Below are positions 4,280 to 14,559 of a stretch of 24,000 bases of DNA, one piece after another. Made by a program: the position numbers and the translations under genes. Location of the stretch: positions 504,798 through 528,797 of the forward strand of contig HG934468.1 of assembly GCA_000723505.1 (NCBI GenBank), read 5' to 3'. This DNA is from Mucinivorans hirudinis (GTDB taxonomy: Bacteria; Bacteroidota; Bacteroidia; Bacteroidales; Rikenellaceae). Under the pieces are notes generated by a model. It searched no databases. It was not told the DNA's origin and saw only the letters and a list, made by a program, of their open reading frames with translations. Within the stretch, counting starts at the first letter, position 1. Each line of letters begins with the position of its first letter.

Positions 4280-4519
4280 TTAATTTTTCTGTTGATAAAG
4301 CATCAGGTTATACCCTGCTTTGAGGTGGACTTTGATAATCCGCATCTTCTTGGCAATGTACTGCGAAGTGCCTTGTATCGCCCCTTTGCCGAGGTCGGTC
4401 AGCAGTTGGTCGTCTGCACTCTGTTGCGAGATGTTGATGGAGCTGCCGAGACCTGCACCCATATTGGCGGCAACCTCTTTAATGGCACTCATCTCCATCG
4501 AGCCGGGGATAAAAATGCC
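4280..4519 (-). CDS. traM: traM exon 2 (C-terminal 79 aa of TraM)
   Basis: GIFIPGSMEMSAIKEVAANMGAGLGSSINIS...KVHLKAGYNLMLYQQKN is the conserved TraM C-terminus. The 42 codons upstream in ORF 4280..4645 are read-through of intron domains V and VI. Confidence 0.85.
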   Translation of the reverse strand, partial: GIFIPGSMEMSAIKEVAANMGAGLGSSINISQQSADDQLLTDLGKGAIQGTSQYIAKKMRIIKVHLKAGYNLMLYQQKN

Positions 4520-4582
4520 GTAGGCTAAGCATCCGCTGCCAGTCACCACATTTCTGTGGTAGGATTGCGGATACTCGCCCCC

Positions 4583-4616
4583 GAACCGTACGTACATGTC
4601 TCCACGTATACGGCTC
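4583..4616 (-). ncRNA. Group II intron domain V (intron 1)
   Basis: GAGCCGUAUACGUGGAGACAUGUACGUACGGUUC. This is the canonical 34-nt domain V with the AGC triad and the GUAC...GUAC helix, 19 nt downstream of the IEP stop. Confidence 0.9.
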
Positions 4617-4634
4617 TCCATTAATATCATCAGC

Positions 4635-6458
4635 CTAATTGTCATGTACCCTCTTGTTACAGTGCTCGCATACTACCAGAGTTTTACGGTTCTTTTTCAT
4701 CATTAAACGTTCCCAGTCTTTTTCACCTTTCAATTTCTTGATGTTTTTGACTTGGAACATAACGACTTCACCATTTGCTCCGCAGAGTTCACATTTGCGG
4801 GTTTGCAGTCTTTTTATTAGACTGGGCTCCTTTTGAATGTATCTGCTTGGCAGTAAATCACTGTAAAGGATTTTTGGACACTTTTTCTTGCGTTTGAATC
4901 CTTCATTATAGAATTTCCGATATTTAGTTACTCCTTTTTCATCATTATATGGTATTGCAAACTCTTTATTTATTTTGAACTTGTTTATTACCTTACTGAC
5001 AGAGCTTTCAAGTTTACCGGAGAAAGTTTTATACATACTGTACTCCATAATGTGGTAGAAAGAATTTATGTATCCACTATTGTTTGCTAAAGAGTAGTAA
5101 TTGTAGAACCCTCTGATTTCTGCGTTGTATTTGTCCAGTATATCCAGTAGACTATAGTTTATGAGAAATTTTCTTGCTTTTGACTCCCATGCTTCCTTCC
5201 CTTTCGGGTAGGTGTATTGTATCGCATCATAGCTTTCTAATTTCTGCCTAATAGTATCTGTAGTGATATACAGTACGACTTTACCATTGAACGCACGCTT
5301 TAGTATTCCATTCTTATCTCTTTTGGTATCGTATGATTTACGCACAAAGATGTCGTATCCCAGAAATTTTGCCGGTTCTTTCGCATTGGTTATCAGAGTT
5401 TTTTCTGCGGACAATTCCAATTTCAGACAATTCTCCATATATTGAGAAATATCCTTTTTGAGTTGGATACAATCTGCTTTACTACCCGTAATTCCAATTA
5501 GAAAGTCATCAGCATATCTGACGTATTTTAATCGTCTGTACCTATCATCCATTTCGTTACCATGTGGAATTTTTGTTCTTTCTTTCTCAATTTCTCGAAT
5601 GGAAGAGGCTAATTGCTTTCTTACATTCGGATCTTTTTCGATTTTAAGCTTTGTAGACAGCCGACCTTTTCGCACTGTTAATGTGCCGCTTCTCGTATCT
5701 AATCTCCTTTTCTTTCCACAATCGAAGTTTTGGATATACTCTTTCATGTATTTGTCGAACTTGTCAAGGTAGATATTAGCCAATATTGGGCTAATGATAC
5801 CTCCTTGAGGTGTTCCACTATACGTTCTATGAAATGTCCAGTCTTCGACGTACCCCGCATTCAAGAACTTTCTGATGAGATTTATAAACCGTTCATCATC
5901 AACCCTTTCTTTCAGTATATTTATCAATATTTGATGATTTATATTGTCGAAGAAGCCTTTTATATCTCCTTCGATAAACCATTTTACACCACTGAATGTG
6001 TTTTGAATGTTTGACAATGCAGTATGACAACTTCTTTTTGGTCTAAACCCATGAGAAGAATATTCAAAGTATCCTTCATATATGGCTTCCAATACCATTC
6101 TTATGACTTCCTGCACTAATTTGTCTTCAAAAGAGGGTATTCCAAGTGGGCGTTTTTTGCCGTTTTTCTTTGGAATATAAACCCTCTTTGAAGGGTGTGG
6201 TTGGTACGTCTCATTTTTGAGCGTATCAATTAGATTTTCGATTCGAGACAAACTCATTTGGTCAGCAGTCCTTCCATCTAACCCTTTAGTCATATTCCCT
6301 TGATTTGCATATATGTTCTGATAAGCAACATAATACATCTCTTCGTTGAACATGATACGGTAAAGACGGTTGTACTTATAAGCCGAATTATCGCTATGTC
6401 CCATTAGACTGTTTAATACTTTCTCCGAATTTCTCATAATGTCTCTCACATTTTTCAT
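4635..6458 (-). CDS. Group II intron-encoded reverse transcriptase/maturase (LtrA-like)
   Basis: 607 aa. RT motifs include RPLGIPSFEDKLVQE, GFRPKRSCHTAL, TPQGGIISPILANIYL and YVRYADDFLIG. A maturase (X) region and a Cys-rich C-terminus (CELCG...CEHCNKRVH) follow. Confidence 0.92.
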   Translation of the reverse strand: MKNVRDIMRNSEKVLNSLMGHSDNSAYKYNRLYRIMFNEEMYYVAYQNIYANQGNMTKGLDGRTADQMSLSRIENLIDTLKNETYQPHPSKRVYIPKKNGKKRPLGIPSFEDKLVQEVIRMVLEAIYEGYFEYSSHGFRPKRSCHTALSNIQNTFSGVKWFIEGDIKGFFDNINHQILINILKERVDDERFINLIRKFLNAGYVEDWTFHRTYSGTPQGGIISPILANIYLDKFDKYMKEYIQNFDCGKKRRLDTRSGTLTVRKGRLSTKLKIEKDPNVRKQLASSIREIEKERTKIPHGNEMDDRYRRLKYVRYADDFLIGITGSKADCIQLKKDISQYMENCLKLELSAEKTLITNAKEPAKFLGYDIFVRKSYDTKRDKNGILKRAFNGKVVLYITTDTIRQKLESYDAIQYTYPKGKEAWESKARKFLINYSLLDILDKYNAEIRGFYNYYSLANNSGYINSFYHIMEYSMYKTFSGKLESSVSKVINKFKINKEFAIPYNDEKGVTKYRKFYNEGFKRKKKCPKILYSDLLPSRYIQKEPSLIKRLQTRKCELCGANGEVVMFQVKNIKKLKGEKDWERLMMKKNRKTLVVCEHCNKRVHDN

Positions 6459-7022
6459 TAATTGTATTAAAGATATTAACTGCTCCCCTTCGCCATGTAC
6501 GAGGCTTTCCCTCGCTCAGACTACTACGAGAGCTCCGTTACCATGCTGGATATTCAGAGGCTTCACCTCATAGCCCTTAGGCATTCCAGTTTAGGTAATC
6601 CTCGTTTAGTTGTGTAATAACTTAGCTTGATGAATTGTCGGATACGACTTTCGTCCTTTTATGCTTATTGCAATTGCGTCGTGATAAGTTCCATTGCTCT
6701 AACCTCCAAGAGGGTAAGGTAGAGTATCACGATTAAACGTTATTGTCTAAATTCTTTCAGTCAATATTAACTGCCTTACGTTTTAGCTTACGGTCTAACC
6801 GCTCAGACTATCGTTCAATCAATCCAGATTTTATCCTCATATTCATCGTTTCATCTTGCCATTCAGTCGCAACTTGGCAATTAGTTGACTTATGGCTTTC
6901 CTGACATGCTACACTCCCTGTCGCGTTTCCTTGAACAGATAAGTCAGTTGATGATAGGTTTTTCGAACACTAACCTAATCTCTTGCCAAAGAGATATTTA
7001 TTACACACCCTTACGAGCGCAG

Positions 7023-8201
7023 CTCTTGTCCATCGGAGTCGATAACCGTCAGTGTTACAGGGATAATCAAACCCTCGTATTCGAGTGAGGTGATTGAGAT
7101 ACCGAGCCGTTCGCCTTGAATCTTCGCCATTCCGGTAACGAGTGCATTGCGTGGGACAATAGTTTCGCCAGCTCTCATCGGTTCGAGTAGTCGCATTCTG
7201 ACTGCCTGACCGTCCGTAATGGTTTGGTTATCGTGAATGCACGCTTTAATCGTGTTCTTCTCCGACTTACCCTCCGTGCCGACTGCCGTGTGAAAACCCA
7301 TATTTCGCTCCTGTGAGTAGTCGGCAATGAATTCCGAATCGCTAACAGGTTGCGTAAGTCCCGACACAATCCGCTGCTGAACCTGACCGATAGGGGTCAT
7401 TTGTGCCTTGCCGTTTTTGTAGGCTTCTACGGGTTTGGCGGTTTCAGTTATCGAAACAGTGGGCTGTGTCGGTGGCGTTGCTCCGCTCTGACCTGACGGC
7501 AGATACTTCGCTGCCAATTCGTATGACTTCTCCATAAGGGCAAGTTGCTCATCCATTGCATTGCGTGGCGACTCTGCCTGTTCCAATCGTGCGTTCAGCT
7601 CCTCCAACTTCAACCGCATCTCCTCCTTTTGCATAAATTCGGCGTCGTTCGGCAATCCAAGCCTATGGCTTGATTGCTCTCTCTCCTTAGAATTTTCAGG
7701 GTCTTCTTTGGGTGTTTCGTAGAAATTACCCAAGGTGCGATTGATGTCCTGATAGGCATTTGCCGAGGCATAGATGGTTTCACGAGGTCGGGAGCTTCCG
7801 CCACCACTGCCATAGCTGCGTTGCGGCTCGGTGTAGGGTTCGGAATAGTCCTCTTCGTATTCATCATCGCTGCCAAACATAGAGGCTAAATCCTGCATCT
7901 GAGAGCGACGCTCCTCTTGCTTACGATCCATTAAATCCTGCTCGTAGGCAGCTTGTTTGTCTCCGACCATCTGTTTATTAGTGGGTGAGGGAACTTCGGT
8001 ATTGTAGCCTGCCTGCTCCTGCTCTTTCGCCTTATCCTCGTCTGAGGGTGCAAAAATCAGCCACATAGCACCTACGAACATTGCCACCATCAGCGGATAG
8101 ATAAATAGCTTCTTGCGTTTCTGACGCTCCGCTTCGGTCAGCTCCTTACGTGGTTTGTCAGGCTCACTGTGAGCCTTTGTTTCAATCTTGTTTTCGTCCA
8201 T
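7023..8201 (-). CDS. traM: traM exon 1 (N-terminal 393 aa of TraM)
   Basis: MDENKIETK...KKLFIYPLMVAMFVGAMWLIF (TM segment)...AKIQGERLGISITSLEYEGLIIPVTLTVIDSDGQE. The ORF continues 3 codons (LRS) into the intron before a stop at 7011. Confidence 0.85.
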
Positions 8202-9141: not shown

Positions 9142-9660
9142 TTATTTACCAAGAAGGCGACCTGAGATATTTCCTGCTGCCGCACCTGCTCCGGCTCCTG
9201 CCATTGAGCCTGCTTTGCCAGCGGTTGAGTTGACATTCTTGCCATAATTGCCTGCACCACCCGATTGGATAATCCACCCTGCTACGGTAGGAATGGTGAA
9301 GTAGCCGATGATGCCGATAATCATAAATACCAGATACACACCGTTGCTCGCTTCAATCGAAAAGTTGGGGTTATTCTGCAATTCGGATATATCGTTTTGG
9401 AGCATCAAGACTTGAATTTTGGCAAGTATGGAGCTGAACAGATCCGACACGGGTAACCACAGATAGACCGAAATGTATCGTGTTATCCATTGAGTTAACG
9501 TACTCTGGAAACCGTCCCAGACCGAAATTGCGAAAGCGATTGGTCCTAAAATGGCAAGGACAATCAGAAAGAAGGTGCGGATAGTGTCTATCACGAGTGC
9601 TGCTGCCGCAAAGAGCAGTTCGAGCAGCTCTCGAAACCAATCCCTCATCGACTTTTTCAT
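9142..9660 (-). pseudogene. traJ: traJ 3' fragment (C-terminal ~170 aa of TraJ)
   Basis: MKKSMRDWFRELLELLFAAAALVIDTIRTFFLIVLAILGPIAFAISVWDGF... is the conserved second half of TraJ. An IS separates it from the first half. Its ATG lies in the duplicated ATGAAA. Confidence 0.85.
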
Positions 9661-9931
9661 CTGTGTATATTTTTGTATTAATTTGTATAATAGCTATTTA
9701 AGGTATAATTAAGAGATTAAATTTTCATCTTCGTACTCCGTGCCTATAAAGGCAGTGGTAACACCTGTTGGTTCTTAATTTTGTGCCCAAATCTCTTTGG
9801 ACATAGGTCAATTTCATACTCAAGCTCTTCTAAGGGAAGTCTCAGAAAAAATGCGACCTATGTTGTTGCCTTAAATATAATGCTTGCTTAAAACGAAATA
9901 AAAAATGTAGCTTGGTGAGATGCAGCCCATT
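9661..9931 (-). ncRNA. Candidate bridge RNA / seekRNA in the 3' non-coding end of the IS110-family element
   Basis: A 270-nt non-coding stretch lies downstream of the recombinase. It holds three copies of the flanking hexamer ATGAAA. It has a 10-nt identity to the left junction (9809..9818 = 11231..11240) and a 9-nt identity to the right junction (9722..9730 = 9654..9662). An 8-bp stem CATAGGTC...GACCTATG encloses one of these matches. Confidence 0.45.
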
Positions 9932-11157
9932 TCATAAAAATACACTAACATCAACACCTAATGCCGATAAACGATTCAAATAGTTCCGTATCTGCTTCTT
10001 CTGCTTGCGAGGATTTTTGTCGTGTAACTCAGGCTCACGATATGGTTGTTTGTTCAACAAAATGAAGTATGCGGCTACAATAATTTTATGCCCAATGGCT
10101 ACAAGTGCTCGCTTCTTACCTCGTCTGCCTACCAAACTCTCATACTTTCGCTTCAAATAGCAATCCTTCTTACGTGTCGCCCCCCACCCACACTCTACCA
10201 ATATCGAAGTAATATGGCTATTACCCTTTATGGTCTTTGTACTTTTTTTTTACCGGCACTCTCATTATTGCCCGGACTTACACCACAATAAGAACTTAAA
10301 TGGTTCTCATCAGGAAATCGTTCCATATCAACACCTATCTCGCTTATAATACCAATGGCACTATCTCGCCCAACACCCGGTATGGTCTCTAATAGCTCCA
10401 ATTCAACTTCATAATCAGAAACAGCCTTGGCTATTTCTGCATCCAACCGCTCTAACATAGCGTCATCATTAGCTATCACATCTCGATGAAACTGCAACAT
10501 AAAACGATGATGATAGCTAACCTTACCTTGCAAAGCTTTGACAAACTCACTACGAGGCGTCTTTATCTTGCCGTGATAAAACCGCATTAATTGATTTACA
10601 TCACTCTCTCCATCTATCAATGCACTGATGATATTGCGACCAACGGCTCCATCAACATCACTCAATACACTTGATAACTTGATATTGCAATCCTCCAATA
10701 TCTTGATTATACGATTCTTCTCTGATGCACTATGAGCTACTAACTTCTTCTTGTAGCGAACTAAATCTCGTAAATCTCTTATGTCGCGTGGAGGGATAAA
10801 GCTACCCTTGAGTAGTCCGCTTACCAATAATTTGCTCAACCATTTGCTATCCTTCTTGTCGGTCTTATGACCAGGCACATTCTTTACGTGCCGAGCATTA
10901 ACCAAAAGAACCTCAAAATCATCCTCCAAAATATTGAATACAGGCTTCCAATAAACACCCGTGCTCTCCATTGCAATATGAGTTACGCCCTCATCTTTGC
11001 ACCAATCTCGCAACGATTCCAATGAAACGGTAAAACCGTCAAACTCCTTTGTGCCGACAACTTCGTTGCCTCGCTGAATAGTTGCAACTATCAAATCCTT
11101 ATGGACATCAATCCCGCAACCAACCCCAATGTAGGGGGTAAATAGTATCTCTTCCAT
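9932..11157 (-). CDS. IS110-family DEDD/serine recombinase (transposase), split by a frameshift in an A9 run
   Basis: N-terminal RuvC-like motifs GIDVHK, MESTGVYW and HKTDKKD are present. The C-terminal domain reads ...GVSPGNNESAGKKK then continues in the -1 frame as STKTIKGNSHITSILVECGWGATRKKD... ORFs 10228..11157 and 9932..10201 join at the homopolymer 10243..10251. Confidence 0.85.
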
Positions 11158-11224
11158 TGAACATAGTGTTAGTTAATCAATAGGCAAAGATACTCATCTC
11201 TGTTGGTATGCTCAAAATTTGAGA

Positions 11225-11734
11225 TTATGACAATTTCATATTATACATACCTCGTTCGATATACATCCCCGTCATCGTCATCATATCACCCGGACTCCAG
11301 CCGAGTTCTTCCAACTGTTTGTCGAACTCCTCATTGGAGACTAAATAAGCTGTTTCGGGATTACGCATCATAGCTTCGTATTCGAGTTTATCCTTTTGTT
11401 GTCGGTACTTGTTCATATCCATCGTCTGCGACTCAAGCATCTGATGTGTACCTTTGACAACAGGCGACATTACGCCGTTAATCGTTCCAAGCACGAGCGA
11501 GGGGAAGAACATAATGCAGATGCCGATAGCAAATGGACGGAGCATTGGATATACATCAATCGGTTCGGCACGAGCCAAGGATTGCCACACACGGGAGGCA
11601 ACATAAATCAAGGCTCCGAGTCCGGCGATACCCTTTGCGATACCTGCCATATTGCCGCACAGGGGCATCATCTCTACATACAGATTTCGTAGAATCTGGT
11701 GCAGGTTTGAAAAATCTACTGATAACATCATCAT
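11225..11734 (-). pseudogene. traJ: traJ 5' fragment (N-terminal 167 aa of TraJ plus 2 IS-derived codons)
   Basis: ...FSNLHQILRNLYVEMMPLCGNMAGIAKGIAGLGALIYVASRVWQSLARAEPIDVYPMLRPF...GMYIERGMYNMK is the conserved first half of TraJ. The frame then reads L-S-stop inside the IS. Confidence 0.85.
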
Positions 11735-12169: not shown

Positions 12170-12210
12170 GTCGGGTAGGTCGGGGACATTGCTGTCCCTT
12201 TCCCCCCTAA

Positions 12211-12244
12211 GAACCGTACGTGATACTTTCGCATCATACGGCTC
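12211..12244 (-). ncRNA. Group II intron domain V (intron 2)
   Basis: GAGCCGUAUGAUGCGAAAGUAUCACGUACGGUUC. This is the canonical 34-nt domain V with a GAAA tetraloop. Confidence 0.9.
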
Positions 12245-12281
12245 AAGCAACTCAAAATTCATAATATGAATTTGACTCATT

Positions 12282-13949
12282 TTATCTTCCATTTTTATTA
12301 GACTTCATTCTCCATTTGCGGCAATCATCGTGAAACAATACCTTTTCCGTTTTGCCGTTTACCAATCTCTCGGTAATACTCCACGGGGTGCTTTTTCTGA
12401 TAGGTTCGCCACAAATTACACATCTGCGTTTTTGCTTTTCCCACATCCGTACAATGACACTTTTGCCATTGGCTGATAGCAACATTTGACGGGTTTCCCT
12501 CTTGTCAAAGTATGCTTTCCAATCGGTGTCATAGGGATTGGCATCGCATTTGAGTTTGGCATATCGGGTTACTTTTGTGTCAGATAACCTTTTGACAGAG
12601 TGGTAAGTCACTGCTCCGTTCTCTTGGTGTTTTACAGCAAAAGTCCAGCTTCTGCCTCTGACGTTGTGGAAATATTTATCCGCAACCCAATGTTTCCCTT
12701 TGGCAGGGTGTCGCCTTAACGACCATTGCATAAGTTTTCGATAAATCTCGAAATCCATTCTTTGGAACGTCTTTGCAGTAACACAATGCTTATAGTAGTT
12801 TACCCACCCCGTTATTACGGGGTTGAGAAGTCGGATTAGGGATTCCTGCGGTATAGCTTTATGGTCATTGATAATGCCCCTTAACTTTTCGAGGAATTTC
12901 TTTTGTCCTGCCTTAGAGGGTTTGATTAACAGCACTCCTTTGTACTTACGAATGTTGAAGCCAAGAAAGTCAAAACCTTCGTCAATGTGAGTTATCTTCG
13001 TCTTCTCTTCTGATAGGGTAAGTCCCCGTACTTGAAGAAACTCTTTGACCATTGGCATAATCTCTTGTTCTAACATCTCCTTGTTTCTGCTGGTGATTAC
13101 AAAATCGTCGGCATAGCGGATGAGATGTACTTTCGGGTAGTACGACCTTTTAGGGCTGTATAAATCGACTCTCTTAAACTTTTCTTCGAGCATTGTTTGC
13201 AAGCCGTCAAGGGTAATATTTGCCAGAGTTGGGGAAATGATGCCTCCTTGCGGAGTACCCTCTTCTGTTGGGAAAAGCTCATTGTTGAATACGAAGCCGC
13301 ATTTTAACCACTTTTGTAGCATCACCCTATCCATAGGGATATTGTTTAGCAGCCATTCGTGGCTAATGTGGTCGAAGCAACCTTTGATGTCTCCCTCCAA
13401 AATCCATTGCGGAGATGATTCTTTTGACAGATTAATGAAGCATTGATGAATAGCATCACCCGTACATCTCTCCTTGCGGAATCCGTATGAGTGATTGTCT
13501 GCCGTGGTTTCAGCCACGGGGTCTAATGCCATTAAATAAAGTGCCTGCATTGCTCTGTCTTTCATCGTTGGTATTCCCAATGGACGTAACTTCCCATTAC
13601 TCTTTTTGATATTTACCCGTCTGAGCGGTTGAGGCGTATAACCCCGTCTTTTGAGTTCCTTAATAGCATTAACTTTTGCATTTGGTGAGTGCCAAAGAAC
13701 TTTGTCAACTCCCGATGTGTTTTTGCCTTTGTTGGAAGTCACTCGTCTTATTGCCAATACTTTGGCATAATACGAGTGAGTGAGTATCCACTGTAAAGAT
13801 TTGACCTTACCGTGTTTACCCTCTTTTTGAGCCTTTACAATACGTGCTTGTAGCTTACGAACTTCAGTTTCGCACTTGTTCCAGTCGATACTTTCCCAAG
13901 TGGTTGACTTGCTGTCAGTAGATGCACACGATGTCTTAATTTCGTTCAT
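12282..13949 (-). CDS. Group II intron-encoded reverse transcriptase/maturase
   Basis: 555 aa. RT motifs include LRPLGIPTMKDRAMQ, SYGFRKERCTGDA, TPQGGIISPTLANITL and IRYADDFVITS. A maturase region (GWVNYYKH) and a short Cys/His C-terminus (CVICG...HDDC) follow. Confidence 0.92.
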   Translation of the reverse strand: MNEIKTSCASTDSKSTTWESIDWNKCETEVRKLQARIVKAQKEGKHGKVKSLQWILTHSYYAKVLAIRRVTSNKGKNTSGVDKVLWHSPNAKVNAIKELKRRGYTPQPLRRVNIKKSNGKLRPLGIPTMKDRAMQALYLMALDPVAETTADNHSYGFRKERCTGDAIHQCFINLSKESSPQWILEGDIKGCFDHISHEWLLNNIPMDRVMLQKWLKCGFVFNNELFPTEEGTPQGGIISPTLANITLDGLQTMLEEKFKRVDLYSPKRSYYPKVHLIRYADDFVITSRNKEMLEQEIMPMVKEFLQVRGLTLSEEKTKITHIDEGFDFLGFNIRKYKGVLLIKPSKAGQKKFLEKLRGIINDHKAIPQESLIRLLNPVITGWVNYYKHCVTAKTFQRMDFEIYRKLMQWSLRRHPAKGKHWVADKYFHNVRGRSWTFAVKHQENGAVTYHSVKRLSDTKVTRYAKLKCDANPYDTDWKAYFDKRETRQMLLSANGKSVIVRMWEKQKRRCVICGEPIRKSTPWSITERLVNGKTEKVLFHDDCRKWRMKSNKNGR

Positions 13950-14559
13950 TTGCTTTTCTGCTTTAGTAAGTTCTTAAAGTTTCTTGTAAAGTGTTACCTT
14001 ACGCGGAAGTCTGCCCACTTTCGTGTGGAGTGATGTCTCAACTCCTATCCGCTCCATTACAGAGCGACGTTCGCTTTTTCCGCAATCCTATACCCGCACT
14101 CCATTCGGCTTATCTTGCGACTTGCTTACCTATCAACTGATAGGAGAAATACGGGCTTACCACGTTTTACATAAGTGACGAATGAGTGACTTAGGTTCTG
14201 TCTATACACCGGCAGTCGTTGTGTCCGTGTAATCTCACAAGGTTCGAGATTATCCGACTGCGCACCATTTTGGTTCAAGCCTGTCAGCATAATTTGGCTT
14301 GTTTCATACGTTACGATGCGTCAATAACAGTTCATTTGCATTAACCATATCACTCAGCCTCGCTCCCCAACCCCCTAATGCTGGCGGTCATTGCTTCTGC
14401 CTCACGGCTTCTGCTTTTCCTTGCGGAAGGGCTACTTTGTCTGGGTAGCTTCGTACAAACCAATCACTTGAAATGCACGTACCCATAGGCTACTACTGAC
14501 GGAACAGTAGGTTTAATCTTGTTGTTAAACAATCACTTATGCAACTATACGTGTCGCAC

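Follow-up and report, generated by a model that had tools for sequence, protein, structure and literature searches.

The first nucleotide of group II introns, G1, is among their most conserved positions and, if spliceosomal introns descend from group II introns, is the counterpart of the G of the spliceosomal GU. The consensus of the intron ends is 5'GUGYG...AY3', and once the lariat has formed, its first nucleotide is believed to touch the penultimate one (PMC4238363, citing Chanfreau and Jacquier 1993). Known departures from this consensus, as listed in a review, are shifted splice sites (PMC4424553; PMC4024640). [quoted passage not shown] The window analysed here is a stretch of 24,000 nucleotides (nt) of Mucinivorans hirudinis (contig HG934468.1 of assembly GCA_000723505.1, forward-strand positions 504,798 to 528,797), in which the traM gene of a CTnDOT-type integrative and conjugative element (ICE) is interrupted by a group IIA intron. 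Its location in a conjugation gene adds another case to a known set; less ordinary is its first base, C in place of G1 (hereafter C1), which marks a natural lineage within a small clade of introns with C or A at base 1.

Both traM and its intron lie on the minus strand of the window. The intron occupies 4520..7022 (2503 nt, 5'-CUGCGCUCGUAAGGG to GCUUAGCCUAC-3'), as placed by empty sites and the Rfam model RF00029. Exon 1 (7023..8201, 393 codons, identified from the list of open reading frames (ORFs) and Pfam profile PF12508) ends ...VIDSDGQE, and exon 2 (4280..4519, 79 codons plus stop) starts GIFIPGSMEM, its first base, G, being delta'. Each exon length is divisible by three, and joining 7023 to 4519 yields an in-frame TraM of 472 amino acids (aa). 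Positions 1-76 of the Pfam TraM profile correspond to aa 318-393 in exon 1, while positions 77-144 run from the first residue of exon 2; the break in the profile at 76|77 coincides with the exon junction, and the domain is cut cleanly in two. The spliced product matched 6535 TraM proteins. Among the 120 matches listed, nearly all are 440-478 aa long with a coverage of spliced TraM of 96-100%, the uninterrupted homologue P0121 being 92% identical at 100% coverage, and none ends ...DGQELRS apart from the window's own truncated ORF. The sequence DGQ(E/Q)GIFIPGSME spans the junction in all 12 uninterrupted homologues inspected.

Furthermore, the closest intron-less traM alleles (L015 and L016, 92% aa identity) read gactccgatggacaagag^ggcatt at the empty site, with a junction core of gacaagag^ggcatt, and are equal to the ligated exons of the window base for base. 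The boundaries are therefore directly fixed at 7022 and 4520 without ambiguity, and the predicted junction of the ligated-exon RNA is GACAAGAG|GGCAUU. Boundaries moved by 1 nt (GCUGCG...CCUA, giving DGQD-GIF, also in frame) were considered and are excluded by these empty sites; the delta-delta' pair would moreover become C.C, and the residue in homologues is E or Q rather than D. An earlier note on this DNA had described traM as split by an Ll.LtrB-like group IIA intron of 2503 nt, with exon ends at 7023 and 4519 that rejoin in frame into a 472-aa protein and restore the conserved TraM junction. All of these coordinates hold, and the C-terminal 79 aa align with TraM, both in the Pfam profile and in full-length homologues. 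A 22-aa insertion, NSKEREQSSHRLGLPNDAEFMQ, was also observed in the window's TraM at residues ~170-191 (~7610..7675, minus strand), after ...EDPE; it is absent from the closest uninterrupted homologues (P0121, P0123 and others).

Read without splicing, the traM ORF (8201..7011) continues for three intron codons (LRS) past ...VIDSDGQE and then stops, leaving a truncated TraM of 396 aa that has no C-terminal half of the conserved domain. An unspliced message yields this truncated protein, so that TraM production, and with it conjugative transfer of the ICE, should depend on splicing, as for Ll.LtrB in ltrB. To a gene caller the locus appears as two ORFs, 7011..8201 (396 aa) and 4280..4645 (121 aa), the latter starting within the intron and overlapping the end of the intron protein ORF. 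From this split, surveys of ICE completeness will score such elements as traM-defective.

The traM intron is of class IIA, carries a protein of the mitochondrial-like (ML) class, and is of the Ll.LtrB type. RF00029, the Rfam model of domains V and VI, matched 4618..4520 with 61.6 bits (gathering score 40, E=4.2e-10), and its end coincides with the 3' splice site. Domain V (4583..4616, 34 nt, GAGCCGUAU...ACGGUUC, delimited by the RF00029 alignment and by folding) contains the AGC catalytic triad. Domain VI (4522..4580) folds at -49.7 kcal/mol (z=-6.0) with a bulged branch-point A at 4526, seven positions before the 3' end (-7), an architecture shared by relatives. No Rfam model of domains D1-D4 reached its gathering score for this intron, and these domains were compared by sequence alignment only, to Ll.LtrB and ~55 relatives. 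An 11-nt loop of D1 holds delta, a C at intron nt 310 (6713), followed by exon-binding site 1 (EBS1) CUCUUG at nt 311-316 (6712..6707), together 6707..6713. EBS1 forms six of six Watson-Crick pairs with intron-binding site 1 (IBS1) CAAGAG at exon positions -6..-1 (7028..7023), the last bases of exon 1, and the CAGGAG of sister alleles still pairs via G.U. C310 forms a pair with G+1, the base that opens exon 2, following the IIA-specific delta-delta' rule, as is the case in 15 of 15 relatives with an unambiguous EBS1 at the homologous loop. A candidate EBS2, CCGU (intron nt 230-233, 6790..6793), lies in a D1 hairpin loop with a family-wide signal of complementarity; the candidate IBS2 is AUGG (7033..7030). 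The class and the EBS1-IBS1 and delta-delta' pairings are directly supported.

The intron-encoded protein (607 aa, 4635..6458, minus strand, recognised by its Pfam and PDB LtrA matches) contains RVT_1, Intron_maturas2 (PF01348, X/maturase) and AI2M-like HNH (PF21368) domains and a DNA-binding D region, and aligns with LtrA (PDB 5g2x) over residues 23-604 (E=2.5e-147). A domain IVa-like stretch, GGAUUACCUAAACUGGAAUGCCUAAG, at intron nt 422-447 (6576..6601) has a counterpart in the real Ll.LtrB copy of pFI430, to which it was aligned. Its homologue upstream of the ltrA start is the high-affinity binding region of LtrA in Ll.LtrB. The content of G plus C (GC) is 37.8% in the intron, 35.9% in the intron ORF and 50-51% in the exons. 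The domains V and VI with a branch A at -7, the LtrA-like protein, the Ll.LtrB-like RNA stretch and the AT-rich intron ORF had all been proposed before and are borne out; the non-canonical first base had been overlooked. The 3' end, ...CCUAC (AC at 4521..4520), agrees with the AY consensus and has a penultimate A that is kept in relatives. The 5' end, CUGCG (7018..7022, base 1 being the C at 7022), departs from the family consensus GUGCG, and from the GUGYG rule, at G1 only, positions 2-5 fitting the consensus. By homology, an intron with C1 still qualifies as a group II intron, of a variant kind.

C1 is found in seven near-identical copies of the traM intron. Besides that of the window, six copies (L005-L010) occur in ENA assembly ERZ28675667 on contigs ctg1924 (three copies), ctg2025 and ctg2207 (two copies), with three copies sharing one 2.6-Mb contig; they are 99.9-100% identical to the window intron and all read ag|CTGCG. 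A relative from separate samples (L012), 88% identical in nucleotides and with an intron protein 91% identical in aa, reads ag|CTGCGCTCG as do the seven copies, and is followed by traM exon 2. A sequencing error or private lesion is ruled out by the seven copies together with this 12%-diverged relative of other samples, which directly support the conservation of C1. Base 1 was sampled in ~65 of roughly 8000 intron-protein homologues and is G in ~55 other family members. A G1 start was present in 49 of 49 reference-genome relatives with a readable 5' end, and four plasmid relatives start GTGCGCCCGTA. Other departures were found in metagenomic relatives: an intron in a topoisomerase gene (P0013, two independent samples) starts CUGCG, one in a coupling-protein gene (P0006) starts CUACG, and another at the same site (P0003) starts AUGCG, while two more (P0004 and P0014) start GUGCG. 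A neighbour-joining tree of intron proteins, which is a rough distance-based one and may include a few mis-extracted ORFs, groups every non-G start (C, C, C, A) in a single clade, together with one G member. G1 was either lost once with a reversal, or lost at least twice, within this clade, and the constraint on G1 looks relaxed there.

Two side observations concern the same clade and its surroundings. At one site in the coupling-protein gene of the type IV secretion system, ccagctccaa^gggcag, three related introns start CUACG (L101), AUGCG (L111) and GUGCG (L048/L058), a natural series of alleles that vary at bases 1 and 3 within a single genomic setting. In addition, a member of the non-G1 clade on a JGI 3300042590 contig (L113), whose 5' end lies off the contig, ends ...CCUGC at locus position 2489, with a penultimate G in place of the A that is invariant elsewhere, and could bear on covariation between the first and penultimate bases.

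Changes private to the traM lineage were found at nt 7, 77, 121, 421, 2459 and 2479, none of them common to the other non-G lineages. That at nt 7 turns a C-G pair into U.G in a small GUAA hairpin, and those at nt 2459 and 2479 lie in distal D6. No conserved position co-varies with base 1 over all non-G lineages, and the penultimate A is kept. A metagenome scan with the 18-mer TGCGCTCGTAAGGGTGTG gave nine matches, all unrelated chance matches of high GC, and a scan of IMG/VR with the intron protein gave only five distant relatives (55-62%), all with G1. In open-access literature text, no natural CUGCG start was found, the matches being construct sequences, nor was a traM-specific lineage or a mobile group II lineage that naturally begins with a base other than G.

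Comparison of the two C1 sub-lineages suggests that the intron has remained under constraint. The intron protein has a dN/dS (ratio of nonsynonymous to synonymous divergence) of 0.055 at a dS of 0.80, indicating strong purifying selection, and ribozyme segments are 92-93% identical where synonymous sites differ at 49%. The lineage differs at only six (nt 1, 7, 121, 421, 2459 and 2479) of the 193 ribozyme columns in which at least 93% of ~50 relatives agree. Furthermore, the same intron, with 0-4 differences per 2503 nt, resides in at least four traM allele backgrounds that differ from one another at up to 137 of 500 nt in exon 1 (up to 27%) and 15 of 240 in exon 2. The flank differences closest to the junctions lie at -4 and +9, with no co-conversion tract. 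Spread by recombination or ICE duplication was rejected on account of these polymorphisms beside identical introns, since crossovers would fall too close to the intron for homologous recombination to have carried it. Purifying selection and recent insertion without co-conversion are thus directly supported, and precise insertion of this kind points to retrohoming, which needs a spliced RNA competent for reverse splicing. On this sequence evidence, recent retrohoming of the C1 intron into divergent traM alleles is indicated, and the lineage is evidently functional and recently mobile.

We therefore propose, with a probability of roughly three in four, that the element is a retromobile group IIA intron in traM of a CTnDOT-type ICE of a Bacteroidales host, and that this intron splices and homes with C1. 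The intron would be transcribed as part of the tra operon, and its RNA would fold with the aid of its own LtrA-like protein. The 5' splice site would be found via EBS1-IBS1 (CUCUUG/CAAGAG), probably aided by a short EBS2-IBS2 pairing, and delta-delta' (C310:G+1) would locate the 3' exon. Branching from the bulged A at -7 and ligation of the exons would then give the 472-aa TraM, and the excised lariat-protein particle would reverse-splice into intron-less traM at GACA(A/G)GAG^GGCAU. Invasion of intron-less traM alleles by reverse splicing would account for the presence of the intron in several ICEs of one genome. For the wider group, we lean modestly towards the view that an ICE-borne Bacteroidota IIA clade gave up G1 and yet stays spliceable and retromobile with the penultimate A unchanged.

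Several other insertions are present in this ICE and in its sisters. A second, unrelated group II intron lies in traI (DUF4141) at 12170..14559 (minus strand), starting GTGCGACACG at 14559, with boundaries placed by alignment to an intact traI (L010). It matched RF02012 (D1D4-7) with 121.8 bits at 14511..14363 and RF00029 with 68.7 bits, ending at 12170, and its 555-aa protein (12282..13949) combines RVT_N, RVT_1 and GIIM domains without an endonuclease domain. Sister ICEs L005-L007 also carry the traI intron, whereas L009 and L010 lack it. Furthermore, an insertion sequence (IS) of the IS110 family, ~1.56 kb, occupies ~9661..11233 (minus strand) in traJ, separating an N-terminal part (11734..~11234) from a C-terminal part (9660..9142). 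The transposase of the IS is split in turn, with DEDD_Tnp_IS110 and a truncated Transposase_20 at 10228..11157 and a continuation in another frame at 9932..10201. The IS110 element cannot splice out, so that splicing of traM is moot for the transfer of this ICE copy, which is probably transfer-defective unless complemented. ERZ28675667 holds at least six CTnDOT-type ICE copies, all with the traM intron and differing in their other insertions; traJ of L008 carries a Transposase_mut IS, and traO of L007 is split. ICEs and parasites of ICEs appear to have colonised this genome heavily.

Several points weigh against splicing and homing with C1. The contact between first and penultimate nucleotides is described as a requirement for the second step to be efficient (PMC4238363, citing Chanfreau and Jacquier 1993). 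Mutants of yeast aI5gamma at G1 are reported to show accurate but slow splicing (Peebles 1993, title cited in PMC4770220). Given this literature, splicing of the traM intron may be inefficient, and it is speculation that slow splicing from C1 would throttle TraM. No consistent compensating partner for C1 emerged among columns conserved at 90-93% or more in ~50 G1 relatives. The candidate EBS2-IBS2 pairing has only 4 bp, CCGU with A(U/C)GG at exon positions -11..-8 (AUGG in the window, ACGG in the sisters), and a strict 6-bp EBS2 search gave no match at the homologous loop beyond this 4-bp candidate. In this ICE copy traJ is broken by the IS, so that TraM made from it is under no current selection. 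Finally, we infer splicing and branching, their efficiency, lariat formation and TraM production from the sequence.

These points bear on two further explanations for the same intron. One holds that the intron is active with a chemistry shifted by C1, through hydrolysis in the first step, giving a linear intron, or through inefficient splicing that acts as a brake on TraM and conjugation, with mobility owed to a small share of lariats or to a route via linear intron. It could draw on the missing compensating partner for C1, although the branch-site A and D6 are conserved. We consider it unlikely, since the precise junctions at both ends of every copy are the product expected of full reverse splicing of a lariat, which is required for both reverse-splicing steps according to PMC4024640, and the conservation of the bulged A at -7 speaks for retained branching. 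The other holds that the change from G1 to C left the intron splicing-dead, with traM a pseudogene in all these ICEs and the intron spread passively by ICE duplication or by homologous recombination between ICEs. The G1 of ~55 other family members, the literature tying G1 to splicing rate and the second step (PMC4238363; PMC4770220), and the IS in traJ of this copy, which fits a decaying element, would all agree with that account. It appears quite unlikely in view of the same intron in at least four alleles, for which recombination would need crossovers within 3-8 nt, and of an intron protein held at a dN/dS of 0.055 over a dS of 0.8 with C1 kept throughout. Furthermore, the ribozyme core is conserved, traJ is intact in the sister ICEs L005-L007 and L010, and traI is intact in L009 and L010. 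A retromobile intron splicing with C1 accordingly remains the reading that we prefer.

To place the intron among its relatives, a reference set of one genome per GTDB species was used, in which the closest intron proteins (55-65% aa identity) are all from Bacteroidota, including Tannerella, Porphyromonas, Dysgonomonas, Bacteroides, Prevotella and Myroides among others; those of Bacillota are 54% identical or less. The closest metagenomic proteins (65-69% aa) belong to introns within Bacteroidota-type conjugative elements, where they interrupt coupling-protein, topoisomerase and relaxase-adjacent genes. Two relatives on Bacteroides plasmids, in a traG-like gene (L001) and in traI (L002), are 68-70% identical in nucleotides and belong to the same IIA family. 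Bacteroidota-borne relatives have a GC of 36-45%, with flanks averaging 45%, and the window intron is at the low end of this range and within it; low GC is a trait of the whole intron family. Residence in traM is old, because two sub-lineages at a dS of ~0.8 both occupy this gene. The earlier note had read the composition as a sign of a low-GC, Firmicutes-like donor; a recent horizontal arrival of that kind, which the 37.8% GC against 50% in the exons, the many Bacillota members of the family and the archetype Ll.LtrB might suggest, is highly improbable given relatives at 55-69% aa that are all Bacteroidota or in Bacteroidota-type ICE genes, the lower identity of Bacillota copies and of LtrA (44.6%), the GC of the Bacteroidota-borne relatives and the long residence implied by the two traM sub-lineages.

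If C1 introns are indeed spliceable and retromobile, G1 would not be a mechanistic necessity when a natural, protein-assisted IIA intron branches, ligates exons or reverse-splices. If experiments bear this out, such introns would provide natural variants, already tested by evolution, with which to study what G1 contributes to branching, the second step and reverse splicing, and would serve as a warning to annotation pipelines anchored on GUGYG.

Among described systems, the traM intron most resembles Ll.LtrB of Lactococcus lactis, found in the relaxase gene ltrB of pRS01, of the sex factor and of pFI430. The two share a length of ~2.5 kb, a domain IV ORF with reverse transcriptase, X, D and HNH regions, a homologous 11-nt EBS1 loop with delta just 5' of EBS1 and paired to the +1 base of the 3' exon, a domain V, a domain VI with its bulged A, and the D4a stretch; in both a conjugation gene is interrupted, so that by analogy transfer would depend on splicing. 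Compared with the pFI430 copy, however, the protein is only 44.6% identical and the non-coding RNA ~55%, and the traM intron differs in its Bacteroidota ICE host, its target (traM, not the relaxase gene), C1, and an EBS2-IBS2 pairing of apparently 4 bp. The introns of Bacteroides CTns are likewise ML-type or other group II introns in CTnDOT-type tra regions, but those examined start GUGCG. [quoted passage not shown] Natural departures from 5'GUGYG...AY3' are also represented by C.te.I1, the fungal rRNA IIB1 introns and RmInt1, with its 3' CC end (PMC4024640, PMC4424553, PMC4238363). In those cases the site is shifted upstream of an intact GUGYG or the 3' end is changed, and the introns with shifted sites lost mobility or branching, whereas the traM intron has a splice site canonical to EBS1, G1 itself replaced, an encoded protein and, evidently, mobility.

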